Assembly: GCA_903881065.1 (NCBI GenBank)
Contig: CAIRRW010000071.1
Span: 1 to 34,729, forward strand
Reading direction: 5' to 3'
Source: an uncultured Bacteroidota bacterium
GTDB lineage: Bacteria > Bacteroidota > Bacteroidia > 2-12-FULL-35-15
DNA length: 34,729 bases
This document shows, piece after piece, positions 7,301 through 34,310 of the stretch (position 1 is the stretch's first letter; each line of letters opens with the position of its first letter). The position numbers were made by a program, and so were the translations under genes. The notes below the pieces were generated by a model. That model ran no database searches. It had not been told where the DNA came from and saw only the letters and a program-made list of their open reading frames with translations.

Positions 7301-10300
7301 TGTAAGTTCCATCAGGATAAGAAACAGGATATATCCATGCTTCAGCCGTCATTACACTTCCCGTTGGCAAGTTAACAGTTCCATTATTTATATAAGCGCT
7401 GTTCCCATTAAATACCGCGCTTCCACTATTTGAGTTAGTTAAACTCCATAATAAGTTACTGCCTCCATTTGTATTGCATACCGTTATAGGCTTAGCAATA
7501 GAATCCTGGCAAATTGTAAAGTGAATATTATAAGAATTTGGACTATGACATTGCTCAGGTCGTGGATAACCTATACCTGATAAACAAATTTTCTTTGTTA
7601 CATTATTATCAATTATTGTTAATGTATCCTTAAATGTTCCAACAGTAGTTGGTGAAAACACTACTCTTACTTTAGCAGAATCTCCAGGTAGTAAATTAAA
7701 CGATGTTGGACTAACTGAATAAACACTGAGCTGATGAGTAATATCAGTTATCTTCAAAGTGTCACACCCAGTATTCTTTACATAAAGAGAAGAATCGATG
7801 GAGGCAGTATTAATCATTATCGAATCAAGATTCAAACAGTTTCTATTTGTCGAAATTAAGCCAGTACCTGTTACATGAAGTGTGCAATGAACGGAATCGA
7901 TCGGTTTTAATGGGTCGTTAGAACTAATCACCACATCTGTATTATAAGTTCCTACCAATAATCCACAACTCTTAAATTTCATATTAACAATACTTGATCC
8001 TCCAGCAGTTGTTGTGTCTTTATTAGGTGTATAACTTAACCAAGTTGAATTGTTGTTAAGATAATAAAGAGCATTAGCGAACATCATGTCTGTTGAAGCA
8101 TTTGCCGAATTGAGATATTCAGGAAATATTACCATTCCTATTACTTTTCCATTATGGTTTTCAGCCACTACCTTGTTGCCTGATAAGTCAGAAGCAAGTA
8201 ATGTCGCTCCTGGATTAAGTGATGGATTGTAATAATTGCAATTTGTCCAATAGGATGGATTAACACTAATATTTTTAAATATAGGGTGATTATGATTTGG
8301 GAGTGTTGCTAAATTTATAGTACCTGAAACACATTGAGTACTGCCAGATTGTATAAATGGAGAATAATTTGCCCCCATTATCCCTCCTGACATTCCCCAA
8401 TTAGAATTAAAGGCATACGTTCCAATTATTACACCTCCACCATTATCAACATATTTTTTAAGAGTATCACCTACCATGGAAGAACCGAATGAATTATCAG
8501 TCCAAACAAGTACAGCATTATAAGGAGCTAACATGGTCATTTTTAAAGATGATGGATTTACCATAATATCTATATCTGAAGCAATAAATTTACCAGTTGA
8601 AACAAGGGCATTCTTAGCATTAACTCCAGCATCACCTGCGGTCAGAATAAGTACTTTTGGTTTTGTTGTACCTCCTCCACCTTTAATGCTACAAATCAAA
8701 TTTGAACCACCTGTATTGTTAATTGTTAATGGAAGAATGGTGGAATCACAACATGACAAACTTACATTGAATGACGTTGGAGTTGTAGAAAGAATTGGTC
8801 TTTGAAAACATTTTCCTAACAAACATACTTTTTTGGTAATATTATTATTTAATATAGTAAGCGTATCAAGGAAAGTACCAACAGCAACAGGAGAAAAAGT
8901 GGTATATAATTTTGTTGAATCACCTGGCAAAATTTTAAATGATGTAGCATTAACCGTAAATATATTTAGTTGGTTAGTGATATTAGTAATCTTCAATGTG
9001 TCACACCCTGTATTTTTAATATAAAGGGAATCTTTATGCGAGGTATATTGCATTATTGAATCAAGATTCATACAATTCTTTGACAAGGCTATTCTACCAG
9101 CTCCAACTACAGTTAAAGAACAAGGCACAATTAATGGACTATTAATCGGATCGTTACTTGTTATTGAAACAGTTGCTGTATTTGTTCCTACATTTAAATT
9201 GGAAGAATTAAAATTCACATTAACTATATTCGAATTACCTGAAGCTACACTTCCTGTTAAACTTGACAATGCAACCCAAGAAGCAATCTTAACTGTGTAA
9301 TCTTCAAATTGACCATACGTAACATTCGTGCATGGTTGTGGTGCAGAATAATAATAATATTCTGATCCAACCCTCATCCTTACCGCTTTATTCTTAACAG
9401 CAGTTGTTGGAATTGTAACAGTACCTGTATGAAGAGTATTTGGCAGTGAATTAAGATTATTCAATACCATTTCACTAGCATCGAAAACACCATCATTATT
9501 GAAGTCAATCCATACTCTCACATTCTCAGGATAACTAGTTCCTGTTTGTACTGATATGGAGTAAGTTTGTCCTGGAATTACCACTGTACTTTGCGATGAT
9601 GTATAATTCTGGTAACCCTGCACAGCATTGCCAGTAGTATTATTAATGGAACCAAAAGTAACATTATAAATACCCATATTGCAACACGTTCCTGTAGTGG
9701 CAGGTGCGCATAAAGCTGCTGAAGGCAAATTGGAATTCATTGATGGATTCAACAAATTAATATTGTAATTCAATACGGAACCTCCAGTATTATTTATTGT
9801 TAAGACACTAGAAGTCGAATCAACACAGGAAAGTGTCGCATTTATTGACGTTGGACTTGTAGTAATAGTTGGCATTGCGAAAGCTTTTCCTGATAAACAA
9901 ACTTTTTTTGTTGCATCATTATTTATGATTGTAAGTGTATCTTGGAAAGATCCAACTGCTATAGGCGAAAACGTCGAGTATATCTTTGTTGAATCCCCTG
10001 GCAGAATATTAAAAGTTGTAGGATTAACTGTAAAAATAGAGGTTTGCGTTGTGATATTTGAAATCTTTAATGTATCACATCCTGTATTCTTCACAAACAT
10101 GGAATCCTTATGTGTTCGATGTTGCATAATAGAATCCAGATATATGCAGTTTTTTGACAAAGCAATTTTACCCGCTCCGGATACATGAAGAGTACAATGA
10201 ACTGTGTCATTTGAATTAAGAGGGTCATTAGAATTTACAATTATGTTAGTAGTATAGGTTCCCACTGGCAATCCGCAACTTTTTAATTTTACATAAACGG

Positions 10301-13300
10301 TATCCGTGCCACCGGCAGAAATATTACCTGAGAATAAACTAGCTGAAAAGCCTTCAGGAAAAGAAACCGGATTGCTTGTATTTAACCAAGAAGTATTAAT
10401 GCTAGTTCCATTATTACTATTCAAAGTTTTATCAAACAAGGTTGTACCACTTCCTTCAGAAAGTGGATAATAGGCAACCAATCCTGATAGCGCGGGATTA
10501 ATTTGACCATACAAGTTAGCAGCTATCTGTGCTTGTGTTCTTGCATAATTCCAAATCCTTACTTCAGTAATATCACCATTATAATAATAAGAATGACTTC
10601 CTGTGCCTCCATAAGCTCCAATTATTTCTCCCAGTTGTCCTTTTACTAATGGACAAGTAAATGAACTTGTTCCTCTTAATACCCCGTCTACATATACTTT
10701 CTTATTTGATCCATCATAGGTGGCTGCTATATGATGCCAAGCTCCATTTGTGATCCCGATAGAAGCAGAATTCAAATAATAATCCGTTCCGCATCCTCCA
10801 GATTGAGGATAGGTTCTGAAACACAAACTTGTCCCTTCAAAAAATAACGAATACTGCGTATTTACTGGACCCTTTTCAAAAATAAATCCATTCTGATTAT
10901 AATTAGAAGAATAAACCCAAGCTTCAATCGTCAACTGATTTAAATCAAATGCAGTAGAGTTATTAATTTGGACATAGCTATTGGCACCATTATAATTTAA
11001 AGTATGACTATTATTTTTATTCAAACTCCAATTTAGATTTGAGCCTCCTGCATTATTAACTGCCAATGGCAATGTAATTGAATCACAACATGCCAATGTT
11101 TCATTAAAATAAGTTGGGGAAGTTGAAAGAATTGGTCTTGCAAATGCTTTACCTGACAAACACAATTTTTGCGTTATGTTATTGTTTAAAATAGTTAATG
11201 TGTCATTGAAAGTTCCAATGGTAGTTGGGGCAAAGGTTACTTTAAGTTTCGCCGAATCACCGGGTAAAATGTTAAATGATGTTGAATTAACAGAATAAGC
11301 AGCTAATTGATGAGTAATATTTGTAATCTTCAATGTATCGCATCCAATGTTTTTCACGTATAATGAATCCATTTTACTTCTGTATTGCATTATTGAATCC
11401 AAATTCATACAGTTTTTTGTTAGTGCAATTGTTCCTGAACCTGAAACATGAATTGTATATGGTACTACAATAGGATTGTGAATAGGATCGTTATTATTGA
11501 TGGTTATATTACCTGAATATGTTCCAACATTTAATCCCATCGAACTAAATTGTACATTCACAGTACTTAATGATCCCGAGCCTATGGTCCCAGAATAGGA
11601 AGAAACAGATTCCCCAATTGATGAACTTGTTTTTAAAGTATAATCTTCGAATTGTCCATAAGTAACACTATTACATGGTTGAGGAACTCCATAATAATAA
11701 TATTCCGAGCCTACTCTCATCCTCATTGCACCATTTGCCCCAGCATTAAGGGGTATGGTAACACTTACAGTATGTACATTATAGCTAGAATTCCCATTCA
11801 TAATTTGCTCATTGGCTTCAAATATTCCATTGTTGTTATAATCAATCCACGCACTTACATATTCAGTATAGGAAGGTCCAGTTTGGACAGATAATGTATA
11901 GGTATGTCCTGGAATTATCAATGTGCTTTGGCTTGATGTATAATCCTGATAACCTTGTGTTGCATTTCCAGTTGTATTATTGATAGTATTAAATGTTACA
12001 TTATATATTCCCATATTACAGCAGGTTCCAGTAGTGATTGGTCTACAGGAAGGATTTACTGGTAAATTAGGATTGATAATAGAATAATTTAAAGCTCCTC
12101 CTCCTGTGTTATTAATTACAAGAGAAGTATTGAGTGAGTCGGAACAGCCAAGAGTAACATTAAACGAGGTAGGATTTGTAGAAATTGTTGGATTAGGGAA
12201 TGCTTTTCCTGTTAAACAAATTGCTGTATCTATTGCATTAGTATATAGTGAGAGTGTTCCTGAGAACGTTCCTGCATTGGTTGGGGAAAACTTCACTACT
12301 AAGTTTTTACTTAAGCCAGGTGCAATCATTGTTGGATAAGAGACAACAGAGTAAACGGATGGCGAAATGGAATAACTGTTTATTCTTAAAGTATCACAAC
12401 CTGTATTTGTTATTTTTAATGAATCTGTACTGGTAGTATTTGCCATTATTGAATCCAAATCAAGACAAGGTTTGGTTGTATTATACATAGAAGCTGTTAA
12501 GTGAGGGCTTCCATTAACAGTCAACGTCCAAGGTATTTGTAATGTTGGAGTAACCGGATCATTACTTGAAAGTGCAATACTTCCTGAATAAGTACCGGAG
12601 CTATAACCTATTGAATTAAAATTGACATTCAAATTTGTTGAACTATTTGCAGGAATAGTGCCTGAAGTTGGAGACATTGTTATTAATGTTGGCACCTTTA
12701 CTACATAGTCTTCTGTTTCTCCATAATAACCGCTTAAAGACCCACATGGTGAAGGGGCTGATCCATTAGTCCAATCAATAATTCTCATTCGAGTTGCTCC
12801 TGCTGCTGCATTCTGAGGAACAGTAATAGTAAAGGTTCTCAAACTATTTCCAGTTGAAACATTTGTTACTACTTCTTCATTTGCATCAAAAACCCCATTT
12901 TGATTCCAATCTATCCATACCGAGAAGTAAGCAATATTACAACTCCCTTGGGCTTGAAGGTTTAACATAAAAGTGCCTCCTCTGTTTTGCGAAACAAATG
13001 GAGCAGTATAATATGAATAATCTCCATATGGGTAACTTCCATCTACAGGAGACGTAATATTTGTAATTCCTCCGGAAGTTGTTACACTATTAATATAGGA
13101 ACACCCGTTATAAGGATACATGGTTGGATTACAATATCCAGTTGGTGGATTAGAATTATTTCCAGAACTTATTCCAGTTGCATTCCAATTCAAAACACTT
13201 CCTCCTGAATTAATTAACAATACAGATGAAGCTGTTGAATCAGAACAACCCAAAGCAACAGAAAGTGAAGTTGGCAAGACTCCAATAATCGGGTTGGCAA

Positions 13301-15959: not shown

Positions 15960-16151
15960 TTGAATGAATTATAAATTAGATGTATATATTTAATATTTAG
16001 ACAGAACCATATGCTATGCGGCTAAAGTAATAAAATGTTTTATCAGAAAAAAGGACTTATGTTAGAAATATTCATTTTTAAGTTAAATACCTACTAAACA
16101 TTGATTTTTAACCTTAAAGAAAAACATTGGAACGCGAAATGTCAAGTTTTC

Positions 16152-16268
16152 CCGACCAATTGTAACCCTCTGGCAAACATTTGTAACCTATTACCGACCA
16201 TTAGTAACCTCCCGACAACAATTAGTAACCAATTCCCGACAAAAAGTAACTATTTATAAATAGTTACT
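16152..16268. repeat. Phased 21-bp repeat array: five direct units with a GTAAC core, ending in a perfect 24-bp palindrome. Candidate operator array and/or operon terminator.
   Basis: GTAAC occurs at 16162, 16183, 16204, 16225 and 16246, spaced exactly 21 bp. The units are CCGACCAATTGTAACC, GCAAACATTTGTAACC, CCGACCATTAGTAACC, ACAACAATTAGTAACC and CCGACAAAAAGTAAC. The palindrome AGTAACTATTTA|TAAATAGTTACT spans 16245-16268. The array lies 193-309 bp upstream of the giant-gene ATG and 77-193 bp downstream of the operon stop. Confidence 0.7.
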
Positions 16269-16344
16269 CTTTCATGAAACTTTAATATTATTATATTCTT
16301 TGGCTAGAATGCCTAGTACTCAACTAATTTTCGTGGATTCTAAA

Positions 16345-16974
16345 TTACCTTTTCAGTAAATTAAGTTCAATCTTTAGTTTAATATCACAATGCTTTATTA
16401 CCACATTAGTTGGGAATTCATCTTTATAATCATTTAAACTGAGCACCACTTTCTTCACCTTCTTTTTCGAATGTTCAATTTTTACAATATGATTGGTTAC
16501 CTTTTCAGTAAAATAATAATTATACATATTATCGAACTGAATTCGTTTTATGGCAAATAAATTATTTCTGTCAGTAAAATCATTAGCGGGTTTCCCCACA
16601 AGATTATTCATCAGCAATATTGCAATATCATGCTGAATAGTTTTTAATAAAGCAGGCCGGTTAAATTGAGGAACGCAGTAATGAAGAGTAAAAGAAGTGT
16701 CTTTAAATTCGAAATCAAAAAGTTTCATCCCCAGTTCGGTAGTAAAAATAATACGGTAATCCTGTGCCGACATTTGTTTTGTAACAAGCAGTCCGCTCAC
16801 ATCTTTATTGTAAATACTAATATTAGTTTTAAATAAAAATGAATTAAAATTATCGCCGAATATAGGCTTGGGAATGGATGAGGTAGTTGCCTCTTCCTTC
16901 AATCGCCCATAATGACCAAGAGTGCAGCCTGCAAGTAGAAATAATAAAATACTACTTAACAATAAATTTCTCAT
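16345..16974 (-). CDS. Lipoprotein of unknown function, last gene of the KS/ACP operon (possibly the DUF3261-type lipoprotein seen in aryl-polyene clusters)
   Basis: The track ORF is 16345..17031. The internal ATG at 16974 gives MRNLLLSSILLFLLAGC, a signal peptide plus lipobox Cys. It overlaps the LolA-like gene end by 23 nt. The family assignment is a guess from context. Confidence 0.6.
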   Translation of the reverse strand: MRNLLLSSILLFLLAGCTLGHYGRLKEEATTSSIPKPIFGDNFNSFLFKTNISIYNKDVSGLLVTKQMSAQDYRIIFTTELGMKLFDFEFKDTSFTLHYCVPQFNRPALLKTIQHDIAILLMNNLVGKPANDFTDRNNLFAIKRIQFDNMYNYYFTEKVTNHIVKIEHSKKKVKKVVLSLNDYKDEFPTNVVIKHCDIKLKIELNLLKR

Positions 16975-17587
16975 CGTCAATCGGCTGATTATTTTTTCTG
17001 TTAGTGAAATCAATACTTGTATAATCATCACCGGGCTCTATCATTTTCACTTTCACCACGGAGTAATCGGCCTTATCAATATAAAGTTGTATCACCTTTA
17101 GAAAATCTTTTGCACCTTTTTGCACCGGTGCAAGTTCCAGTAGGTATTGTTTATCACTTTCATACTCCTTAGCTTTGTAGTCCTTATTACTAAGCAGGTT
17201 TCCCTGTACTGTATTCATCATCATTTCATTAATGCTTTTAAACATTTTGTTCGAGTTGATATCATATTTACTCACCTTGCCGTTATCTTTAATAAACATT
17301 TTATCCTTATTAATAGCTATGATATATTTGTAAGGATCGTTGTATTCCCACCGCAGCATATTTATTTTCTTGAAACAAAAATGTCCTTTACTTATAATCT
17401 TTTCCGACATCACCGATAAATATTTTTCCTGTGTAAAATCACTTTCAATAGTATTTACCAGCTTCGATTGACTTTCCATTTTTTGTTTAAATGCAACAGT
17501 ATCTTTCACAGCAGTAAAGCCTTTTGGCACCTGTGCAAATAAAACAACCGGCAAACTAGACAAAACAATCAGCAATAATCTTTTCAT
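16952..17587 (-). CDS. LolA-like outer-membrane lipoprotein carrier family protein
   Basis: 211-aa ORF with an ATG start and the signal peptide MKRLLLIVLSSLPVVLFAQ. Size and beta-rich sequence (F.Q.K....S......G.F.....N..RWEY..P) are typical of LolA-like proteins found in aryl-polyene/flexirubin-type clusters. Confidence 0.65.
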   Translation of the reverse strand: MKRLLLIVLSSLPVVLFAQVPKGFTAVKDTVAFKQKMESQSKLVNTIESDFTQEKYLSVMSEKIISKGHFCFKKINMLRWEYNDPYKYIIAINKDKMFIKDNGKVSKYDINSNKMFKSINEMMMNTVQGNLLSNKDYKAKEYESDKQYLLELAPVQKGAKDFLKVIQLYIDKADYSVVKVKMIEPGDDYTSIDFTNRKNNQPIDDEKFIVK

Positions 17588-17606
17588 ACGTATCTATCTT
17601 TTATTT

Positions 17607-18371
17607 TCAAACTGTTAACTTTAATAATTCTTCCACACTTACAATTTTGTAACCATTTTCTTCAGCGAAATTAAGTGTTTGTTTTAATACCTCTATTGTT
17701 TTTTCAGAAGTATCGTGAAACAATACAACAGCACCCGGTTTCAATTGTTCCTTTACTCTTTTAAATATAGTTTCGATTGAATCGCCTGTTGTATCCATGC
17801 TTCTAACATTCCATCCAATAATTTTATAATTTAATTCCCTGGCTGCACTCGCCAAATTTGGAGTAGTAACACCATAAGGCGGACGAAATAGAACAATTCT
17901 TTTTTCTGTTATTTTAAATACTTCTTCAGCAGTATGATCAATCTCGTTCATAAACCCATTTTTACTTTTAAAATCAATAAAAAAGGAATGACTATAGGTA
18001 TGATTTCCTATCGAATGTCCGCCATCATCAATTTGTTTAATGATAGGTTCATTGCCTCTAATCTTTTTACCTATTACAAAAAAAGTTGCCTTTGCATTGT
18101 ATTCAGCAAGTATATCAAGCACTTTCGGAGTATATATATTATGCGGTCCGTCATCAAAAGTAATTGCAAATACTTTTTCTGTAGTGTTTGAATTACAAAA
18201 TGCCCTTATAAAAAAGTTGGATTGTATAGTTGCCGAACCATACACAATGAGAATATTATAAACAAGAAAAGGAAGAATTAACCAGAGTAAATTTACTTCA
18301 CAAAAGTAATTCAACAACCCTATAAAGCATAAAGATAAAAGGAATACAATGCTTGTTGATTTAAAAGTCAT
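17607..18371 (-). CDS. Membrane-anchored polysaccharide deacetylase (NodB homology domain, CE4 family)
   Basis: 254 aa with two N-terminal hydrophobic helices. NodB motifs present: TFDDGP, HSIGNHTYSH and RPPYG. Confidence 0.8.
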   Translation of the reverse strand: MTFKSTSIVFLLSLCFIGLLNYFCEVNLLWLILPFLVYNILIVYGSATIQSNFFIRAFCNSNTTEKVFAITFDDGPHNIYTPKVLDILAEYNAKATFFVIGKKIRGNEPIIKQIDDGGHSIGNHTYSHSFFIDFKSKNGFMNEIDHTAEEVFKITEKRIVLFRPPYGVTTPNLASAARELNYKIIGWNVRSMDTTGDSIETIFKRVKEQLKPGAVVLFHDTSEKTIEVLKQTLNFAEENGYKIVSVEELLKLTV

Positions 18372-18388
18372 TGGTTAATATAATTTCT

Positions 18389-19453
18389 CTAACACTGAGA
18401 AAGCAGGAAAACAGTATGATAGGTATTCATATAGTTATTATAAATAAGAACATTTTTTATATGTTTCTTTTTATTTTCACCAATTAAAATACTTTTAGGA
18501 ATAGTTTGTGTTTTTAAAATCATTGCTGCTTCCCATAAAGCAAAGCAACTCGAAGTTTGATATTCGCCACTCAAATGTTTAAAATAGGCAGCAGTATTGG
18601 TATTGAAAAGAGTTTTTTGTATATCGTAATATGAATTATCAAACCTTACATCGCCGCTGATGCCATATATTACACAGTCAATATCATCAGTTGTTAATCC
18701 CTTTTCGTAAAGTAAATCGGTAATTCCATTTTCAATTTCATCTTCACTTCCGGGATTGAAAATCATTTTCACTGCACGAAGTTTAGCGTAGTTCTTATCA
18801 CTTTCTTCATTGCTCAGCATAAAAAATGCAGCCCCTTCGCCGGAAACACTTCCAGGAGTTTTACTGTTGACAATATCCATCGTTGCAACATTTTCCTGTT
18901 TCCAGAATCCTGCCCGTTGTGTAATGGTAAAATGCCTGTCAGTCATTTCATCATGTCCTCCAACAAGCACATTCTTTGCATCGCTGTCTTCAAGCGTCAT
19001 CAATCCATCAAGCACCGCAGATTCAAATGAAAACCCTTTATGAACATAAGTAAAATTGTAATTCATGCATTTTAATTGCAGCGCAATTTGCGAACTCACC
19101 GTATTGTGAGTCGATTGCATAAATGAAGTAGGAGTTAAAAATTGTTCGTCATTATCAATTATTGCAAGAAGGAATTTCTCAGTATCCTCATGACAACCCA
19201 GAGCAGTTCCTGTTATAATAGCATCAGGCATTTCAACTCCCGAATCTTTAAGACAAACAGATGAAGCAGCAATTCCCATTTTTACTGTCCTTCCCATTCT
19301 TCTTGCCAAAACAGGGTTTAAAAACTCAGTATAAACAGGCTCCACACAACGTAACGAGTTTGTATTGTATTCTTTTAATTCTGTTAAAAATTCATGGGTA
19401 TTAAAAGTTTTTTGCGGGGAAACTATTCCTATTCCTTTTATAAATGCTTCCAT
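18389..19453 (-). CDS. Beta-ketoacyl synthase-like protein lacking the catalytic Cys and His residues (chain-length-factor-like partner subunit)
   Basis: 354 aa with thiolase-fold-like sequence. STHNTVSSQIA sits where KS enzymes have TACSSS. There is no HGTGT motif, and SGEYQTSS replaces GH.LGA.G. Its ATG lies 3 nt after the upstream KS stop. Confidence 0.65.
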   Translation of the reverse strand: MEAFIKGIGIVSPQKTFNTHEFLTELKEYNTNSLRCVEPVYTEFLNPVLARRMGRTVKMGIAASSVCLKDSGVEMPDAIITGTALGCHEDTEKFLLAIIDNDEQFLTPTSFMQSTHNTVSSQIALQLKCMNYNFTYVHKGFSFESAVLDGLMTLEDSDAKNVLVGGHDEMTDRHFTITQRAGFWKQENVATMDIVNSKTPGSVSGEGAAFFMLSNEESDKNYAKLRAVKMIFNPGSEDEIENGITDLLYEKGLTTDDIDCVIYGISGDVRFDNSYYDIQKTLFNTNTAAYFKHLSGEYQTSSCFALWEAAMILKTQTIPKSILIGENKKKHIKNVLIYNNYMNTYHTVFLLSQC

Positions 19454-19456
19454 AAA

Positions 19457-20659
19457 TTAATGACGTGAAAAAATTAAAGCAGATGAGTTTCCTCCAAAAC
19501 CAAATGAATTGGATAATACATTGTTTATTGGCTTATCTGTTGTCAATGTTTTTGTAGGAGTAAAATTAAGTTCACTCATTTGGTTTATATGATTTAAACT
19601 AGGGTACACCATATTATATTTAATTGCAAGCACTGATAACACTGCTTCAATACCCCCGCAAGCGCCAAGAGTATGCCCTGTAAATGCTTTTGTTGAACTT
19701 ATACGAGGTACTTTATTTCCAAAAATCCGTTCAATTGCAGTTCCCTCCGACATGTCATTTACTTCCGTTCCAGTGCCGTGTGCATTTATATAATCAATAT
19801 CTTCTGGCTTTAATCCGCTAATCTTAAATGCCTTTTGCATGGCAAGATAAGCGCCTTCTCCTGTAGGCGACGAAGCTGTTTGATGATAGGCATCATTCGA
19901 GTTTCCATACCCCGATAATTCACATAATATTTCTTTTCCCTCTGCTGCTCTTTCCGATTCAAGAACTATAAAACCTGCGCCTTCACCAAGGTTTAAGCCT
20001 TTTCTTTCTGCATCAAATGGTTTGCATTGTTCTTTATCCAGAATCATTAGAGTCATAAAACCATTAATTGTAAACTTTGAAAGCGAATCAGTTCCGCCAA
20101 CCACTACACGGTCAACAATATTGTTCTTTATCAATCTGGCACCCAGCATTATTGAATTTGCAGATGAGGAACAAGCTGTACTTATTGTTGAAATGTGATC
20201 TTTAATTCCCAAATACTTCGCAATTACTTCGGTACTATCACCACAATCATGCGTTTCAATATATTTCAACCATCCGCCACTTTTCTCAACATCTAAAAAG
20301 TCCTTGAAATAGTTTTCTGTCATTGACATGCCACCAACACTTGTTGCAGAAATAATTCCGGTTCGGTACTCATTCACATCCTTTATACCTGCCCAAACCA
20401 TTGCTTCTTTTGCAGCCAGCATACCTAGGAGTGTGGTACGCGTAATAATTGTGTCAACATGAAGACCAATCATTTTTATCAATTCTTCATTGGTATGTTT
20501 TACTTCCCCAATAGGTATTTCATTTCTATGACGGGTAATAATATTATCCAACTCCCCAATCCCTGACTTACCTTTCGCAACTGCTAAAAGTGTTTGTTCT
20601 ACATTGTCGCCAATCGCGGAAATCATACCAATTCCTGTGATATATATTTTTTTATTCAT
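19457..20659 (-). CDS. Beta-ketoacyl-ACP synthase II-like (FabF-type) condensing enzyme
   Basis: 400 aa. Active-site Cys is in STACSSSANSI, with His motifs NAHGTGTEVND and FTGHTLGACGGIE and a C-terminal SNSFGFGGNSSALIF. Confidence 0.85.
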   Translation of the reverse strand: MNKKIYITGIGMISAIGDNVEQTLLAVAKGKSGIGELDNIITRHRNEIPIGEVKHTNEELIKMIGLHVDTIITRTTLLGMLAAKEAMVWAGIKDVNEYRTGIISATSVGGMSMTENYFKDFLDVEKSGGWLKYIETHDCGDSTEVIAKYLGIKDHISTISTACSSSANSIMLGARLIKNNIVDRVVVGGTDSLSKFTINGFMTLMILDKEQCKPFDAERKGLNLGEGAGFIVLESERAAEGKEILCELSGYGNSNDAYHQTASSPTGEGAYLAMQKAFKISGLKPEDIDYINAHGTGTEVNDMSEGTAIERIFGNKVPRISSTKAFTGHTLGACGGIEAVLSVLAIKYNMVYPSLNHINQMSELNFTPTKTLTTDKPINNVLSNSFGFGGNSSALIFSRH

Positions 20660-20698
20660 TGGTTAATTGTCAATATTAAATTGTCAATTATTAAAGAA

Positions 20699-20953
20699 TT
20701 ATTTTTTGTTCTCATTAATAAATTCAGCCATTGTTCTGATGGACTGGAAAATCTTTTTCCCATCGGCAGGGTTGGATATTTTTATTCCATAATTTTTTTC
20801 CAACAATACTATCAGCTCAAGAGCATCAATAGAATCCAATCCTAAACCTTCTCCAAATAAAGTTGCATCACTATCAATATCTTCATTTTTTAAACCTTCA
20901 AGATTTAATTGCAAAATGATCTCCCCTTTTAATTTGTCCATTAATTCTTCCAT
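20699..20953 (-). CDS. Acyl carrier protein
   Basis: 84 aa, acidic, with the phosphopantetheine attachment motif LGLDSIDALELIVLLE. Confidence 0.85.
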   Translation of the reverse strand: MEELMDKLKGEIILQLNLEGLKNEDIDSDATLFGEGLGLDSIDALELIVLLEKNYGIKISNPADGKKIFQSIRTMAEFINENKK

Positions 20954-20997
20954 AACTTTTGTTTTTTGCTTTATCTTTTTCCTTTACGGATAATTGA

Positions 20998-21636
20998 TTA
21001 AGCGTTGTTTGTATATAATTTATTTAATTGTTCATTTGTATGCTCTATTCCAAATCCCTCATGCTGTGACTCAACTGTATACAAAAATGCCTCGTAATTA
21101 TTTTCATAAAAATCAACCCAACCTGCAATGCAACTAGTTGCTTTATTTCTATTCAAAAGCGAATTTATATATGTACTCATAAAATCTGCATCAAATTTAT
21201 CAAAAATAAAGAATGTGTTTTCTCCTTTTATTTTGTTTCTGATAGCAATTTCTCCAATCAATATATTCGGCAAGGTATAAACAAATACCGCAGGACTGGG
21301 AAAATAATTCTCTTTATTTGAAATTGCTTTTTGATGTTCGGTATCAATTTCCAATGATGATGCACTGTTGGCAATAATTATAGCAATATCTTCCTGATTG
21401 TATTTTTCAGTAATTCTATTTGTTTTAAGTAATATTTCTGAAGTAATGAAAGCCAGTTTACACAAGCTATCCATTTTATAAAACTTAGGGTAATTTAATT
21501 GGTAATGCGAATAAGCCGATTTAAGAAAATCGACAGCTGAACTATTCTCTGTATTGGTAAAATCAATCTTATTATTGATTGATATATTACCATTCTTAAC
21601 TGAACAAACTGAAGTTATATAATTGCTGTTACTCAT
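20998..21636 (-). CDS. Small KS-like / 3-oxoacyl-ACP synthase-like protein with no recognisable catalytic Cys (partner subunit)
   Basis: The track ORF is 20998..21690. The ATG at 21636 (MSNSNYITSV...) sits 1 nt after the TAA stop (21640-21638) of the upstream KS, so the 18-codon extension is probably spurious. No AC.S, HGT or GH.LGA.G motifs were seen. Confidence 0.55.
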   Translation of the reverse strand: MSNSNYITSVCSVKNGNISINNKIDFTNTENSSAVDFLKSAYSHYQLNYPKFYKMDSLCKLAFITSEILLKTNRITEKYNQEDIAIIIANSASSLEIDTEHQKAISNKENYFPSPAVFVYTLPNILIGEIAIRNKIKGENTFFIFDKFDADFMSTYINSLLNRNKATSCIAGWVDFYENNYEAFLYTVESQHEGFGIEHTNEQLNKLYTNNA

Positions 21637-21637
21637 A

Positions 21638-22822
21638 TTAATTTGCTGCTTCCATTTTCTGAAATAAAACTGCAGCATTACATCCGCCAAATCCTGCTGC
21701 TGTTTTCAAACAATTATTTACTCCTGATATTTTAGTTTCCTTAATAATATTTATTGGAGCTGTTACTCCCAATGTATCAAAATTATAAGTGCCGATTAAT
21801 ACATTTTCTTTCATAGAATGAATTCCAACAATAGATTCGATAACACCTGCAGCACCGAGTGTATGCCCAAAATAACTTTTAAGGCTATTCATAGGCACCT
21901 TGTCAAGTTTTGCATTAGTTATAGCAAGCGATTCCATATCATCATTAAAAAGAGTAGCTGTGCCATGACCGGAAATAAAATCTACTTCTGAAGGTTTTAA
22001 ATTTGATTCCTTCAATGTTTTTTCAATAGCAAGCAATAATCCATCACCTGTTCGGGATGGTCCAGAAATATGGTTTGCATCATTAGAGCTTGCTCCTCCT
22101 TTTACTGAAATTTTAGTTTTAGTTTTAATAACCTTTGCTTCATTATTAGTGAGTATTATTGTTCCGCAACCTTCACCCAACGAAATTCCGTTTCTGCTTG
22201 CATCATAAGGTTTGGCAATCTCATTGCTTACCGCTTTAAAGGATTGAAATCCTGAAACAACAAAATGTGTCATGCTGTCGGCACCAATTACAAGTATAGT
22301 ATCGTATCTTTTTTCCTCCAGCAATCGTTTGCCAAGTATAATTGCAAGCACACCCGAAATACAAGCATTTGAAACAACTATAGGTTGATTACTATTTTTG
22401 AAATAACGGGCAATTACATTTGCTGTTTCCCAAAGATAAACTCTCTTTTTATCGAATTTTTTTCCTTCTTCTTCATTCAGCAAATCAATATTTCCTTTTG
22501 TTGAAGAAAATACTAATAGAGCTTTATCACTTGTAATATCAATATTTTTATTCTGATTTAACGCATCCGTAACAGAAAGTATTATCATCTTTTCAAGGCG
22601 GGTATATGCTTCACTTATATTCAGCTTTGAAAATGCAGTATTTAATTTATCATTGTCTATAACTGATGCATACACTGGTTCAGAAGATATATTAGAATGT
22701 TCGAGTAATCGCACACCTGTCTGCATCTTTTTCAGACATTCAAAGTTATCTGCACTTGTAAAACCAAGTGGAGAAACAATATTATCAGCGGCAACATACA
22801 CCTTCGTCAAATTCTCAGTCAT
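21638..22822 (-). CDS. Beta-ketoacyl-ACP synthase (catalytic KS)
   Basis: 394 aa with motifs SNACISGVLAI (Cys), SGHGTATLFND (His), FGHTLGAAGVIE (His) and a C-terminal AAGFGGCNAAVLF. Confidence 0.85.
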   Translation of the reverse strand: MTENLTKVYVAADNIVSPLGFTSADNFECLKKMQTGVRLLEHSNISSEPVYASVIDNDKLNTAFSKLNISEAYTRLEKMIILSVTDALNQNKNIDITSDKALLVFSSTKGNIDLLNEEEGKKFDKKRVYLWETANVIARYFKNSNQPIVVSNACISGVLAIILGKRLLEEKRYDTILVIGADSMTHFVVSGFQSFKAVSNEIAKPYDASRNGISLGEGCGTIILTNNEAKVIKTKTKISVKGGASSNDANHISGPSRTGDGLLLAIEKTLKESNLKPSEVDFISGHGTATLFNDDMESLAITNAKLDKVPMNSLKSYFGHTLGAAGVIESIVGIHSMKENVLIGTYNFDTLGVTAPINIIKETKISGVNNCLKTAAGFGGCNAAVLFQKMEAAN

Positions 22823-22835
22823 TTATTTCCTCTTT

Positions 22836-23288
22836 TTACATCAATGAATATTTCCTTTTCCATTCTTCAAAAAATGGTGGATTGGTAATAAATAACTCAT
22901 GTTCTAAATTAATAAATACCTGTGTGGATTCCCCTGTTGTAACTAGTTCGCCATCCGAAACACGAAATATTTTATATAGAAAAATAATCTTTGCAGCTGC
23001 CGAATTAATAAAAGTGGTTTCTATAATAACACTGTCACCATACCTTACGGTCTTCTTAAAATCAACATTTAAGTTAACCAGCGGAGTCGCAAATTTGTGT
23101 TTGTAAACATCCAGATATCCCAACCCATATTGTTTTCCAAAAGCTTCCCTACCGTCTTCAAAAAACTTAACATAGTGTCCATGCCAAATAATACCAAGTG
23201 CATCTACCTCACTAAAACGAACCGGAACTTCTGTACGACAAATTAGTTGTTCCACCAAAATTTTATCTTCTTTTATAAATGCTTGCAT
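22836..23288 (-). CDS. Hotdog-fold acyl-CoA/acyl-ACP thioesterase (4HBT/YbgC-like)
   Basis: The track ORF 22836..23315 starts at a TTG (plus-strand caa at 23313-23315). The first ATG is at 23288 (MQAFIKEDK...). The motif VRFSEVDALGIIWHGHYVKFFEDGREAF is typical of 4HBT thioesterases. Confidence 0.75.
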   Translation of the reverse strand: MQAFIKEDKILVEQLICRTEVPVRFSEVDALGIIWHGHYVKFFEDGREAFGKQYGLGYLDVYKHKFATPLVNLNVDFKKTVRYGDSVIIETTFINSAAAKIIFLYKIFRVSDGELVTTGESTQVFINLEHELFITNPPFFEEWKRKYSLM

Positions 23289-23329
23289 TTTCTTTAAGGG
23301 ATGTAAATTTATCAAAAAAAAGCAAACAT

Positions 23330-23337
23330 CAAATTTA
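23330..23337 (-). promoter_or_regulatory. Candidate Bacteroidota -7 promoter box (TAnnTTTG) for the thioesterase-KS-ACP operon
   Basis: The minus strand reads TAAATTTG at 23337-23330, with an ATTG (-33-like TTG) 18 nt upstream. It lies about 42 nt upstream of the ATG at 23288. Confidence 0.35.
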
Positions 23338-23415
23338 TTATTTAGGATAGAAAGGCAATTTTGAAATATGAATATAAAAACACATTAGGAAAGAACGCGA
23401 TTTATAATATACCCC

Positions 23416-24015
23416 CTACTTCCATATTTTAAAATTCAACTTAAATTTTTTCTCCTGAAGACAAGCACGCCAATCAATAAAAAGAAGTCCGGCAACTAGC
23501 AAAAACCCAACAACTATACCTGTAATGGATTTCCACGAGATGGCGCCTTCGAAGAAACTTACAGTATTCTCTGCGGCATATTCCCCCATGAGTACAGCAA
23601 TTGTATCACTAATTAATTTTCCAACAAAAAAGGCAGGTATAATTAAGAATGGTTTCATTTTAGCCATCCCTCCTGCAATAAATAAAGGAGTTGTAGGCAA
23701 TGGCAAAAGAGAATAAGTAAGTATTGCTACCTGACTTTTCCACCCTTTCTCTTTCAGTTTCTTCCCAAGAAACTGTACATCTGCATTTTTCGAAGGTTTA
23801 AAGATTCGCCCAGCAATCCTAGGAATATATAATGTAAGAATATAACGCCCTAATATGGATCCTGCCACACCAGAAACAATAACTACCCAAACATTTAAAT
23901 TAAACTCAATTTGCAGAAAAATCATTATTACAAATGCAGGAGGAAGTGGCAATGGAACGATGTCAACCATCATCGCTGAAATAAATACCAGAAAATATTT
24001 TAACCACAAATCCAT
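23416..24015 (-). CDS. DedA/VTT-domain family integral membrane protein
   Basis: The track ORF 23416..24027 starts at TTG; the first ATG is at 24015 (MDLWLKYF...). It has multiple hydrophobic helices and a G.LGRYI-type motif (GSILGRYILT) plus LLPLPTTPLFIAGG, as in the DedA/SNARE-associated family. Confidence 0.55.
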   Translation of the reverse strand: MDLWLKYFLVFISAMMVDIVPLPLPPAFVIMIFLQIEFNLNVWVVIVSGVAGSILGRYILTLYIPRIAGRIFKPSKNADVQFLGKKLKEKGWKSQVAILTYSLLPLPTTPLFIAGGMAKMKPFLIIPAFFVGKLISDTIAVLMGEYAAENTVSFFEGAISWKSITGIVVGFLLVAGLLFIDWRACLQEKKFKLNFKIWK

Positions 24016-24065
24016 TCCTTTACGCAACGCTAAATATTACTTTTAATAATCCTCCATCTAATTTA

Positions 24066-31417: not shown

Positions 31418-32812
31418 TTATTGCTTAATTAATTTTCCGGTTGAAATAAATTCGGTATTATAAAATTTCCAAAAATAAATTCCAGGGCTACAATTCTCAA
31501 ATGATAATTTCATTCCGTCTAAATTGACACTTTGTTGTTTTATATATTCTTTTCCAGAATTGTCGTAAATAATAAGATCACCTTTTTGTTTGACACCTTT
31601 TAAAATTAAATTTGTAGTCTGACTAAAAGGGTTAGGAGAAAAGCTAACTTGATTGTTGTCTTTTAAACTAACTGTTGGGACAGAAACAAATGTACCGAAT
31701 AAACCAGAAAAAAGATTTGGAAGACTATATGAAGAAGTTAAATGAGAAGTTACAATTCCATTGGAATTAAAATTACAAGTAGTTCCAATATTATTAGGAT
31801 TATTGATGATGCCAAGACGCAAACCATTTGATGAAGCATAATAACTTAGCGCATATATTTTACCGTTTGGACCTAATGCAATATTTGTAAACCAGTCAGT
31901 TGAGCTATATGAACTCACAGCATTCTTTGATGCAAGAATGCTAGAAATATTATATGAAGTAAGATCAAATTGCAATAAGTCAATTGCGGCTACATATAAT
32001 TTTGAATTATCTGGTGAAAACTCCACACCATATGGCTGACCAACCCCTGAAGAAAGATTCATTTCATTGAATAAAGTTCCATTTAATTTATCAAATTGAA
32101 ATAACTCTAATTTATTTGAATCCATTGCTGCTATGGCAATATAATTACCATTTGGGGAAAATCTCATGTAACCTAAGGCGTTGTTATTCGCAAAACCGCC
32201 ATTATGAATAATTCCAATAGATGAAACAACTGGAGTTGTTGATACTCCTGAGGAAGTTACTAAATATGAAGAGAACTCATTTGTATTTAACCCATGACAT
32301 AAAACCCATATATCCGTTCCATTACTGTGATAAGATGCGGTAATTTTTTCGCATACAAGAGTTTGAAGAAATATATTTTTATTAATAACATCACCGTTGC
32401 CACCGTCTAAAGTCATGTCAACTTCCGATACTTCCAATCCATTTGAACCACCTTGCGCATCTGAAGTAAAAATAAAATACCGATCTGAAAAGCTAGGTCT
32501 TGGCACAATTAAGCAGCTTTGTGTACTTGATATACCACCAAGAAGTCCACTTCCTGATGGCATAATAACGTTGTTTTTGTTCCATACTTGTAATCCATTT
32601 GTATAAAATAAAAGATTTCCAAGTGTATCACAGATCGATGAACACCCTTCCTCAGCCGACATGCTATTTAAATAATTTAATGATGGAGGAGAAGTGTTGA
32701 AATCCAGGTTGACCTGATATCCAAAACGCCATTTGTTCGACCGTTGTCCATAGGAATAATAAATAGTTATATTTAGTAAAATTAAATAAGAAAAAAGGAC
32801 TTTTTTGATCAT
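31418..32812 (-). CDS. Secreted beta-propeller-like protein with a T9SS type-A C-terminal sorting domain
   Basis: The track ORF 31418..32860 starts at TTG. The ATG at 32812 gives a proper signal peptide, MIKKVLFSYLILLNITIYYSYGQ. The C-terminus FSPNPFSQTTNLILKG...GDLIIYDNSGKEYIKQ...GIYFWKFYN...TGKLIKQ matches the Por secretion tail pattern. The body has repeated FSPNG/FSPDN propeller-like motifs. Confidence 0.75.
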   Translation of the reverse strand: MIKKVLFSYLILLNITIYYSYGQRSNKWRFGYQVNLDFNTSPPSLNYLNSMSAEEGCSSICDTLGNLLFYTNGLQVWNKNNVIMPSGSGLLGGISSTQSCLIVPRPSFSDRYFIFTSDAQGGSNGLEVSEVDMTLDGGNGDVINKNIFLQTLVCEKITASYHSNGTDIWVLCHGLNTNEFSSYLVTSSGVSTTPVVSSIGIIHNGGFANNNALGYMRFSPNGNYIAIAAMDSNKLELFQFDKLNGTLFNEMNLSSGVGQPYGVEFSPDNSKLYVAAIDLLQFDLTSYNISSILASKNAVSSYSSTDWFTNIALGPNGKIYALSYYASSNGLRLGIINNPNNIGTTCNFNSNGIVTSHLTSSYSLPNLFSGLFGTFVSVPTVSLKDNNQVSFSPNPFSQTTNLILKGVKQKGDLIIYDNSGKEYIKQQSVNLDGMKLSFENCSPGIYFWKFYNTEFISTGKLIKQ

Positions 32813-33159
32813 TTGTTTTATAAATTCATAATTATTTGCTGTTGGTGGTGCATTCATCAATTACCTTTATCAATTTAATATACTCCAAAAGTACTAAATC
32901 CTTCTATGGTATTTTCAATTAATAACTAATTTCACATAAAACATAATAACATTCATATAGATAAATCCTCATACTGGTAAATATCTTTCCAACTTCACCC
33001 TCAACTGATCTTCATTAAAAAAACACAGTTTGAAAAAAGTAATATATTACGTCACTGTTAACTCTTCTTTCTGTTTTTTTCATTTTTAGTTAATTTAATG
33101 TATATTGAATATCAGCATTTTAATGTAAAATAAGTTTCATTTTTCCATTCCGACGAACT

Positions 33160-33459
33160 ATTGTTCCATTTCCATTTTTTATTGTTGGTAGAGACCAAAA
33201 TATTGTTGGTAGTGCTCAAACTATTTCCGGTAAAGGCCAAAACATTGTTGGTAGAGTCCGAAATATTGTTGGCAGAGCTCGTTCCCTGTAATAAAAAGTC
33301 CAAAATATTGTTGGTAAAGTAAAAACTATTGTTGGTAAAGTAAAACTATTGTTGGTAAAGGAGAAAATATTGTTGGTAACGTACAATATATTGTTGGAAG
33401 AACACTTGACCAACAATATAAAATGCTCAACCAACAATAAAAAACACTTTACCAACAAT
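33160..33459. repeat. Phased 21-bp repeat array: 12 direct slots (8 exact ATTGTTGGTA cores, 2 with one mismatch, 2 more degenerate) followed by 3 inverted copies; non-coding
   Basis: Direct cores start at 33181, 33202, 33244, 33265 (GGCA), 33307, 33328, 33348, 33369 and 33390 (GGAA), with degenerate in-phase copies at 33160 and 33223. Spacing is 21 bp except one 20-bp step. Inverted cores (..CCAACAAT) start at 33408, 33429 and 33450. The dyad ATATTGTTGG-N12-CCAACAATAT spans 33388-33419. Spacers carry in-phase A-tracts (CAAAAT, CAAAAC, TAAAAACT). Confidence 0.85.
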
Positions 33460-33942
33460 AAAAAATGAAAATGCCTCTTTTTAACCTTTTCAACTTTTTG
33501 TTTTAAGTGTATTTTGAATAACTTGCTATAAAAAAGAAAAGGATTCTGGCACAAAAAGTAGTTCGGGAAATTCAGCAGGTAATTCGAGAGATTCTTGAAT
33601 CAAAACCAAGGCTTCAGTTTTTTATCTCAGTAATTGTGTAGTTTTCAAAATCTTCTATCACATCATAGTATCTTATTTTTAGACAAGATTTTAGGAAATG
33701 AAACTGATAAGGTTTTATGCTTTATTAATTACAGGGATTTACTTCTATTGAGTTGGTAATTGTAAGAATCTATTTTTGCCTTAGCAGGTTTAAAACTTAA
33801 AACAATCTGAACAAAAGAGTAGAAATTATGTTTCAGTATGAAATGTAAGGTTGGTTAAAAATGCAATTCGTCGAAAAAATAAATAGCGAATTAATTTTAA
33901 ATTTATCTTTACATAAATAATCATTAAAAAAATAAAAAAAGT

Positions 33943-34182
33943 ATGGAAAAACCAATTATTGCCGGAAAAACACCATTACCAGTTCAGCTGGAAGCAGGAA
34001 AAACATACGCATGGTGCGCATGTGGAAAATCAGCCAACCAACCATTTTGCGATGGTTCACATAAAGGTTCTTCTTTTGTACCTAAAGTGTTTGTGGCTGA
34101 AGAAACAAAAACAGCTTATTTATGTAACTGCAAACAAACAGCAAACCCAGGATTTTGTGATGGGGCACATAAAAAATTGTAA
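33943..34182 (+). CDS. CDGSH iron-sulfur domain protein (two CDGSH motifs, mitoNEET-like)
   Basis: 79 aa containing CACGKSANQPFCDGSH and CNCKQTANPGFCDGAH. Confidence 0.85.
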   Translation: MEKPIIAGKTPLPVQLEAGKTYAWCACGKSANQPFCDGSHKGSSFVPKVFVAEETKTAYLCNCKQTANPGFCDGAHKKL

Positions 34183-34270
34183 TCTATTACCATCGGTATA
34201 AGAAACATGCAATTACGCGCATTTCTTATAGATACAATTAGTTAGTGGTATACAGCCACTATACAAACTT

Positions 34271-34310
34271 AAAAAACTCTTTACAGCATATGTAAAGAGT
34301 TTTTTAGTTT
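34271..34310 (+). terminator. Rho-independent terminator after the CDGSH gene
   Basis: A perfect 15-bp stem pairs AAAAAACTCTTTACA (34271-34285) with TGTAAAGAGTTTTTT (34291-34305) around a 5-nt loop. It runs directly into a T-rich tract. Confidence 0.75.

Follow-up and report, generated by a model that had tools for sequence, protein, structure and literature searches.

A non-coding array of direct and inverted 13-nucleotide repeats in strict 21-bp phase from an uncultured Bacteroidota bacterium

Results

A phased repeat array between divergent genes

We analysed contig CAIRRW010000071.1 (assembly GCA_903881065.1) from an uncultured Bacteroidota bacterium. This whole stretch of 34,729 bp is called the window below. 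Between two divergent genes, the window contains a 314-bp array of short repeats (33160-33473). The repeats keep a strict 21-bp phase, with 12 direct slots followed by 3 inverted slots. The feature belongs with phased binding-site or tandem-repeat arrays. Tentatively, we favour a redundant array of same-face binding sites, reshaped by recombination, for a protein encoded elsewhere.

The conserved unit is the 13-mer ATTGTTGGTNRAG. Alignment of the units identified 13 intact copies, of which 10 are direct and 3 inverted. Clustering and phase of the motif are far beyond chance, which supports the binding-site interpretation. Briefly, allowing up to one mismatch, the 10-bp core ATTGTTGGTA has 24 matches in the window compared with 5.58 +/- 2.21 in shuffled sequences. 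None of 100 shuffles attained 24. Half of the matches (12 of 24) are within 33181-33459, including all seven exact copies. Tandem Repeats Finder independently gave a period of 21 bp. A first-pass annotation, made from the letters of this DNA, had described 12 direct slots, 3 inverted slots and a dyad; inspection of the sequence, the shuffles and the repeat finder all agree with it.

Direct slots start at 33160, 33181, 33202, 33223, 33244, 33265, 33286, 33307, 33328, 33348, 33369 and 33390. Nine match the core with at most one mismatch, those at 33160 and 33223 match at 7 of 10 positions, and the core at 33286 is unrecognisable. The only 20-bp step separates 33328 from 33348. Inverted copies of the 10-bp core are found 21 bp apart at 33408, 33429 and 33450. 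The parts of the array are as follows.

33160..33169, plus strand: slot 0, a decayed direct copy (ATTGTTCCAT, 7/10), in phase 21 bp before copy 1
33181..33277, plus strand: left block of direct 13-mers in 21-bp phase, with copies at 33181 (ATTGTTGGTAGAG), 33202 (ATTGTTGGTAGTG), 33223 (ATTTCCGGTAAAG, decayed), 33244 (ATTGTTGGTAGAG) and 33265 (ATTGTTGGCAGAG)
33286..33298, no strand assigned: slot 6, with an unrecognisable core (CTGTAATAAAAAG) but phase kept
33307..33402, plus strand: right block of direct 13-mers, with copies at 33307, 33328 and 33348 (each ATTGTTGGTAAAG), 33369 (ATTGTTGGTAACG) and 33390 (ATTGTTGGAAGAA)
33388..33419, no strand assigned: central dyad ATATTGTTGG-N12-CCAACAATAT, where polarity switches
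33405..33459, minus strand: three inverted 13-mers in the same 21-bp phase, reading on the plus strand CTTGACCAACAAT (33405-33417), CTCAACCAACAAT (33426-33438) and CTTTACCAACAAT (33447-33459)
33167..33193: left arm of a 27-nt terminal inverted repeat (CATTTCCATTTTTTATTGTTGGTAGAG), pairing with 33447-33473 at 93%
33447..33473: right arm of the same repeat (CTTTACCAACAATAAAAAATGAAAATG)
33327..33460: segment bounded by the perfect 15-nt inverted repeat TATTGTTGGTAAAGT (33327-33341) and ACTTTACCAACAATA (33446-33460)

Slot 6 may be a decayed inverted copy, as weakly suggested by its in-phase alignment with the first inverted copy in repeat family D2. The 27-nt inverted repeat is an extension of the outermost copies.

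Conservation within the unit is uneven. Compared with the consensus, the 10 good direct units have ~10% mismatches at positions 1-13 and ~39% at positions 14-21; free variation is largely confined to ~8 of the 21 positions. Positions 14-16 vary freely, while positions 17-21 are A-rich on the plus strand; in the left block, the variable parts terminate in CCAAAAY-like runs. Hence, the conserved element is 13 nt long. The 11-bp spacers of the first-pass annotation are therefore less free than it stated, only positions 14-16 being truly variable. Inverted copies also retain the 13-mer but have T-runs, instead of A-runs, upstream. Their flanks thus differ from those of the direct units, indicating that they are not recently flipped direct units. 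The core centres of the last direct and first inverted copies are 20 bp apart. Together with the 21-bp period, this places all sites on one helix face, as first proposed. Single strands of the array fold better than shuffled sequences on both strands (z = -4.5 and -5.2) because of the inverted repeats.

The array is in the middle of an unusually long AT-rich intergenic region of ~1.1 kb (32861-33942) between genes that diverge from it; the GC content of the window is 34.7%. This setting is also in keeping with a binding-site array. The only long open reading frame (ORF) spanning the array has 112 codons for amino acids (aa). It is split in another strain (contig L040, below). A search of 5.8 billion proteins found no homologue of this ORF, and Pfam gave no match. 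Using the array ORF as a protein query for spurious ORFs on sister arrays returned no matches. Since ORFs of the array are unconserved between strains and lack homologues and Pfam matches, we conclude that the array is non-coding. The region is therefore gene-free, and conservation is at the level of DNA rather than protein, as was claimed.

Intrinsic curvature was estimated with a simple wedge model and approximate parameters, so the values are indicative. The end-to-end to contour ratio of the array is 0.84; the window median is 0.914, and shuffles of the array give 0.853. The array is outside the most curved 5% of 300-bp windows by this model, so the strong curvature predicted earlier from in-phase A-tracts is not supported. 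By the same model, the most curved 300-bp stretch of the window is at 32700-33025, around the start of the left divergent gene (ratio 0.64-0.65).

The array varies between strains, with one apparent inversion

Metagenome contigs of the same species were identified by exact look-up of the CDGSH protein encoded to the right of the array. Four with DNA (L038-L041) were compared. The array is present in every such contig that covers the site. Flank identity between strains is 99.1-99.3%. Relative to the window, the arrays of L040 and L041 have one extra 21-bp unit, a 1-bp indel and 12 substitutions. Both have 16 slots in a 21-bp register without any indel. Because these two contigs keep 21 bp at the 20-bp step, the step is a strain-specific 1-bp deletion. 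It is present, as the first-pass annotation said, but peculiar to this strain.

Contig L038 matches L041 when the 154-bp segment between ATTGTTGGTAAAGT and ACTTTACCAACAAT is inverted in silico, with 1 mismatch in 881 nt. The segment in L041 is the counterpart of window positions 33327..33460 and is flipped in L038. On inversion, the ratio of direct to inverted slots shifts from 13:3 to 11:5. A single mismatch in 881 nt means that the inversion would be recent and have arisen on an almost identical background. L038 spans the right junction only, and a fold-back library artefact at the inverted repeat could also generate it. An assembly with k=141 cannot mis-join over a 15-nt repeat and, hence, reads carrying the inverted junction must exist. 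In several cases, assemblies break inside the array.

A model for the array as a multi-site binding region

Strong position-specific conservation, strict register, and an inverted block that keeps the motif, the phase and the helix face point to constraint of the protein-recognition kind. We suggest that the genome encodes, at another locus, a sequence-specific DNA-binding protein that would fill the direct copies head-to-tail, perhaps cooperatively. Of the possibilities named in the first-pass annotation, this corresponds to the multi-site nucleoprotein assembly, which is our best guess. At the dyad (33388-33419), the loaded protein would meet protomers of opposite orientation. The resulting extended nucleoprotein complex could influence one or both flanking promoters. 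With many redundant sites, selection on each would be weak and the array would turn over rapidly. Turnover would involve loss or gain of units, point mutation and inversion between opposed copies; the last of these would shift the balance between direct and inverted sites.

Heptads in direct as well as inverted order form the arrays to which the omega repressor of pSM19035 binds. Like the array, the sites of omega, BldC and RemA are asymmetric, head-to-tail, variable in number and of same-face periodicity; omega sites also include a terminal inverted copy. Unlike these systems, which have 2-10 contiguous units of 7-9 bp, the array has 13 bp every 21 bp, 13-16 sites and a putative binder. Precedent for the model comes from BldC and RemA, which oligomerise on variable numbers of direct repeats (PMC5859096 and PMC8481266, respectively).

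If a protein reads the sites, the array would be an orphan chromosomal multi-site region that resembles plasmid iterons in geometry yet lacks replicon functions, and whose architecture is remodelled in natural populations through unit loss and inversion. It would then be a compact model for the evolution of redundant binding-site arrays; it might also represent a contingency locus of a new type in environmental Bacteroidota. In geometry, the array is nearest to plasmid iterons whose operator is an inverted repeat, and to cooperative regulators that act on direct repeats.

Operators of the LytTR and AraC/XylS types consist of 9-17-bp direct repeats, 21 bp from centre to centre. The array is similar in that a conserved element of ~10 bp and an A/T-rich spacer of ~11 bp make up a 21-bp period. 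The match of ATTGTTGGT to what we take to be the loose LytTR consensus is weak (7/9 positions). Such operators differ from the array in having 2-3 repeats next to a promoter, rather than 12 + 3, and no gene for such a regulator is among the scanned ORFs of the contig. We therefore do not assign the array to the LytTR type; it shares the 21-bp geometry alone, with neither 2-3 promoter-proximal repeats nor, on this contig, a LytTR gene. The direct repeats of AgrA exemplify LytTR-type sites (PMC4227749).

Evidence for a possible neutral, unstable repeat

Several observations weigh against the binding-site model. First, the array changes quickly. Non-coding flanks of the strains differ by 9 substitutions in 977 bp (~0.9%), and two third-codon changes were also seen. 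The array has 12 substitutions in 314 positions (3.8%) and so evolves ~4 times faster than the flanks (Fisher p = 1.7e-4, for 12/314 array positions against 8/1166 flank positions). Second, by-eye reading of one alignment places ~7 of these 12 substitutions in 13-mer positions, as uniform mutation predicts. Recent substitutions are thus evenly spread and give no sign of recent purifying selection on the motif. The first-pass annotation had regarded absence or poor conservation in close relatives with identical flanks, and lack of the motif elsewhere, as marks of a neutral minisatellite. All contigs of the species that cover the site have the array, but it is poorly conserved, differing by the substitutions above, a unit indel and the inversion. 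The motif is not enriched in the window outside the array, where exact copies of ATTGTTGGTA are absent.

Third, no comparable array was found elsewhere. Representative genomes of GTDB were queried with two exact cores 21 bp apart. This identified 27 loci, all with 2-3 copies. Of nine Bacteroidota-type loci that were read, eight are inside long ORFs and one, a two-copy pair (L005), is intergenic. We take the GTDB loci to be chance matches, and no array like that of the window was found in the representatives. Metagenomes of JGI, queried with three cores, gave at least 120 loci. The matches listed are all unrelated to the array: one is a Rep3 plasmid, and the others include coding heptads and the eukaryote-type minisatellite ATTGTTGGAAAATGCTTGTAA. 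Among these matches there was no window-type unit and no mixed orientation. Two scans of viral contigs recovered only coding heptads, such as IVGEDVP and IVGRAVR, and BLAST against plasmids and phages revealed no similarity. The closest CDGSH homologues (85-91% identical) are in other gene contexts without the array. Hence, the array is absent beside the nearest homologues, but the flanks there are different. Homologues of the left divergent gene product (<=61% identical) are non-syntenic and also without the array. A literature search for the motif string returned primers only. On present data, comprising these collections and the 34.7-kb contig rather than a whole genome, the array appears confined to this species and one locus.

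Fourth, no candidate gene for a binding protein was found on the contig. Pfam scans covered ORFs of at least 60 aa in 16-34.7 kb that are not inside a longer ORF; an ORF of >5,322 aa at 3-15968 was left unscanned. In the scanned ORFs there were no rep, par, recombinase, transposase, integrase or regulator genes, and no dnaA or dnaN. The earlier statement that rep, par and recombinase genes are missing nearby thus holds for this set. Fast and even recent change, restriction to one species and a single locus, and the lack of a cognate gene nearby together argue that current constraint is weak or absent.

The main rival to the binding-site model is a neutral unstable minisatellite. According to this explanation, which we consider only somewhat less likely than the binding-site model, the array arose when slippage in replication or unequal exchange multiplied a 21-bp unit; it is now decaying, and no protein reads the motif. 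The inverted tail and the inversion would be by-products of short-homology template switching. In favour are the four sets of observations above, including the whole-unit and 1-bp indels and the even recent substitutions. In addition, tandem arrays of 21-bp period in which ATTGTTGG occurs by chance are frequent in metagenomes. Bacterial variable-number tandem repeats resemble the array in head-to-tail arrangement, unit-number polymorphism (here, the 21-bp unit indel relative to L040 and L041) and a raised mutation rate between strains. They differ in lacking its position-specific conservation, strict register and in-phase inverted block. Divergence of the units is not uniform, as a decaying minisatellite would have it, but strongly biased, with the 13-mer kept and positions 14-21 variable (~10% against ~39% mismatch). 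The register is perfect despite old, diverged units and indel-prone A-runs. Furthermore, the inverted copies share motif, phase and helix face but have different flanks, and so are not simple recent flips. Strong conservation of the motif within the array is compatible with fast, apparently unconstrained divergence of strains. If the array is nothing more than an unstable minisatellite, its value is practical, as a strain marker and as the reason for the assembly breaks here.

An invertible switch is improbable

The flipped segment in L038 raises the question of programmed inversion. In such a switch, similar to an inverton or shufflon, the 13-mer would be the site of a recombinase encoded elsewhere. 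Inversion would phase-vary the protein encoded to the left, which is secreted by the type IX secretion system (T9SS), the CDGSH operon, or both. We judge this improbable. The near-perfect match of L038 to inverted L041, breaks within the array in several independent assemblies, and multiple sites in both orientations are all as expected of a switch. Intergenic invertons are common in Bacteroidota (PMC5903667 and PMC10939037). As in intergenic invertons and shufflons (PMC5903667 and PMC9881135), short inverted repeats enclose a segment, and this segment may occur in either orientation in natural populations; shufflons likewise have several sites in both orientations. However, the evidence for inversion consists of one covered junction with the fold-back caveat given above, and exchange was at the longest perfect inverted repeat (15 nt), as for any homology-driven event. 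No recombinase gene was found within 34 kb in the scanned ORFs. The segment has no match to the Bacteroidetes promoter TTG-N19-TAnnTTTG, and a simple inverton would have no use for twelve direct sites in tandem. Unlike known invertons and shufflons, the array has no adjacent recombinase, inner promoter or coding segment, and its repeats belong to a long tandem array. We also rejected a shufflon as such, for which the segments are only 8-11 bp and non-coding, and an Rci-type recombinase is missing.

A hybrid of the two ideas is a chromosomal, recombinase-driven 'polarity shufflon'. Here, the array would be a one-face docking tract. Inversion between opposed copies would reset the number of sites and the point of filament reversal, so phase-varying the T9SS surface protein and/or the CDGSH redox operon. 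Binder and recombinase would both be encoded elsewhere. We regard this as quite improbable.

Mobile relics, RNA and replication functions

The array could instead be a relic of a mobile or extrachromosomal element. This might be a miniature element with multi-site transposase ends, as in Tn7, Mu and Tn402, or an orphaned iteron or operator region of an integrated plasmid or phage. Both the 27-nt terminal inverted repeat that bounds the array and the geometry, with direct sites to the left and opposed sites to the right, invite the comparison. Metagenome contig L059 illustrates the intact kind. It encodes a Rep3_N/Rep3_C initiator (ORF 160-1317), ~120 bp from five iterons of 21-22 bp (ATTGTTGGTCAACTAAGAGAA, 1380-1552). 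L059 is a genuine iteron plasmid, and its sharing of the word ATTGTTGG with the array is coincidental. A relic is nonetheless very improbable. No target-site duplication is seen at the repeat ends (TGTTC and CCTCT), and a second copy is absent from the window and from every collection scanned. The array resembles no plasmid or phage, remnants of transposase, integrase or rep genes were not found nearby, and the neighbours are housekeeping genes. Miniature inverted-repeat transposable elements and transposon ends were rejected on the first two of these points; the terminal inverted repeats themselves (27 nt, 93%) are present.

Plasmid iteron origins with an inverted-repeat operator are known from R6K, RK2, pPS10 and Rep3-type plasmids. 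They share with the array direct repeats of 17-22 bp on one helix face, a conserved core with a variable remainder, inverted caps and similar copy numbers. In contrast, the array has no initiator gene, DnaA box, unwinding element or plasmid similarity, and its context is chromosomal and housekeeping. The iterons of L059 are directly beside the Rep3 gene, unlike the array, which has no such neighbour. Hence, for a plasmid-type iteron origin the repeats are present, but an adjacent rep gene, DnaA boxes and a plasmid or phage context are not. Centromeres of the ParR/parC type include R1 parC, with 10 direct repeats, and that of pSK41, with four 20-bp repeats. In these, as in the array, tandem direct repeats have a period of about two turns; they wrap a protein filament. 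The array differs in being chromosomal, in having opposed copies and in lacking parM, parA and parR genes. A partition centromere (parS, parC or sopC) was rejected since no operon of parA or parM with parB or parR is among the scanned ORFs of the contig. The suggestion in the first-pass annotation of an iteron origin or partition centromere does not survive the housekeeping context and the lack of initiator genes, par genes, DnaA boxes and plasmid or phage similarity. Indeed, the array belongs to none of the families that are defined by a neighbouring gene. A CRISPR array was also rejected, the 13-nt motif and 8-nt variable parts falling short of the required repeats of at least ~23 nt and spacers of at least ~26 nt.

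A role at the RNA level, or an origin as decayed coding sequence, is highly unlikely. Repeats of AUUGUUGGUARAG could act as a protein sponge, or the transcript could form a long hairpin, and both strands do fold better than shuffles. Equally, the plus frame reads as IVGxxxN heptads, and like codon strings encode real heptad repeats in contigs of giant viruses. However, the fold signal is due to the inverted repeats alone. Rfam produced no real match, either in a gathering-threshold scan of the whole window or in an E-value scan of 32700-34300, and no tRNA genes were found. A scan for sigma-70 promoters and terminators identified nothing framing the array, and the Bacteroidetes promoter above is likewise absent from the array region. 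The IVG frame lacks a start codon and is closed by a stop at 33292. There is no synonymous variation in the core codons, and the lack of ORF conservation, homologues and Pfam matches applies here too.

Finally, we find it barely credible that the array is an origin of chromosomal replication, or a partition centromere, that uses a box specific to the lineage. Genes do diverge from the long AT-rich region, its site arrays are opposed, and the reverse complement TTACCAACA matches the DnaA box TTATCCACA at 7/9 positions in our own comparison, but no DnaA box with up to one mismatch is in 32861-33942, window-wide counts of such boxes are at chance, dnaA, dnaN and par genes are missing from the scanned ORFs, GC skew is uninformative, and hypervariability, unit loss and inversion between 99%-identical strains are unexpected for an essential origin. 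We rejected oriC itself as the array has no cluster of DnaA boxes with an unwinding element and the scanned ORFs of the contig include no dnaA or dnaN.

Neighbouring genes and other observations

The context of the array is chromosomal and housekeeping. The divergent genes are as follows.

31418..32860, minus strand: gene for a secreted protein of 480 aa that ends in a sorting domain of the T9SS (Por_Secre_tail, C-terminal); translation probably starts at an ATG farther downstream
33943..34182, plus strand: gene for a 79-aa CDGSH iron-sulfur protein

On the 3' side of the CDGSH gene is a hairpin terminator (34269-34307) and then an E1 dehydrogenase gene. The palindromic hairpin between these genes has a 17-bp stem with T-runs on both strands and is likely a bidirectional terminator. 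Farther left are genes for a PMT_2 glycosyltransferase, PNP, LpxK, a Rieske protein and an M49 peptidase, a cluster for ketosynthase, acyl carrier protein (ACP), thioesterase and LolA, and the ORF of >5,322 aa.

The metagenome matches included other repeats. Two are bacterial non-coding 21-bp arrays with TGTTGG. In L093 (7920-8260), 16 units of ACTGTTGGTCAACTAGTTAAT are between convergent genes in a DUF3276/RecQ context. In L124 (567-899), ~12 units of AATGTTGGGTAACATTRCTCC are ~260 bp from a response-regulator gene. The search selected for the word they share with the window array, so kinship of either to it is unproven. The minisatellite family ATTGTTGGAAAATGCTTGTAA is dispersed, with up to 29 units, in L044, L049, L050, L060, L066, L086 and L092 (all from sample Ga0208946) and in L125. 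These contigs have fragmented, eukaryote-looking ORFs (acidic low-complexity, WD40-like and helicase-like); a TBC-like ORF is on L148, which has a different unit. The family is probably a satellite of a microeukaryote. Upstream of a CDGSH homologue and beside AbiE genes, L176 (~3330-3900; also L177 and L179) has two direct copies of a sequence like the 3' end of a tRNA (…TCGAATCTCTCCGGATCCAC…), with a hairpin terminator after each. They look like attachment sites of an integrated element.

Elsewhere in the window, a second and unrelated array of ~21-bp phase is at 16140-16270, upstream of the giant ORF. Its unit, CCCGAC(C/A)-N3-6-TT(A/G)GTAACC, is present in four copies, with the perfect palindrome AGTAACTATTTATAAATAGTTACT at the end (16243-16266). 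This array looks like a multi-site regulator target. The giant ORF itself (3-15968, minus strand) runs off the start of the contig, has 213-bp (71-aa) tandem repeats at 81-998 and probably encodes a giant surface adhesin. On the minus strand at 16345-24027 are genes for three ketoacyl synthases, an ACP, a thioesterase, a polysaccharide deacetylase and a LolA-like protein. Such a cluster is typical of pigment biosynthesis of the flexirubin or aryl-polyene type in Bacteroidota.

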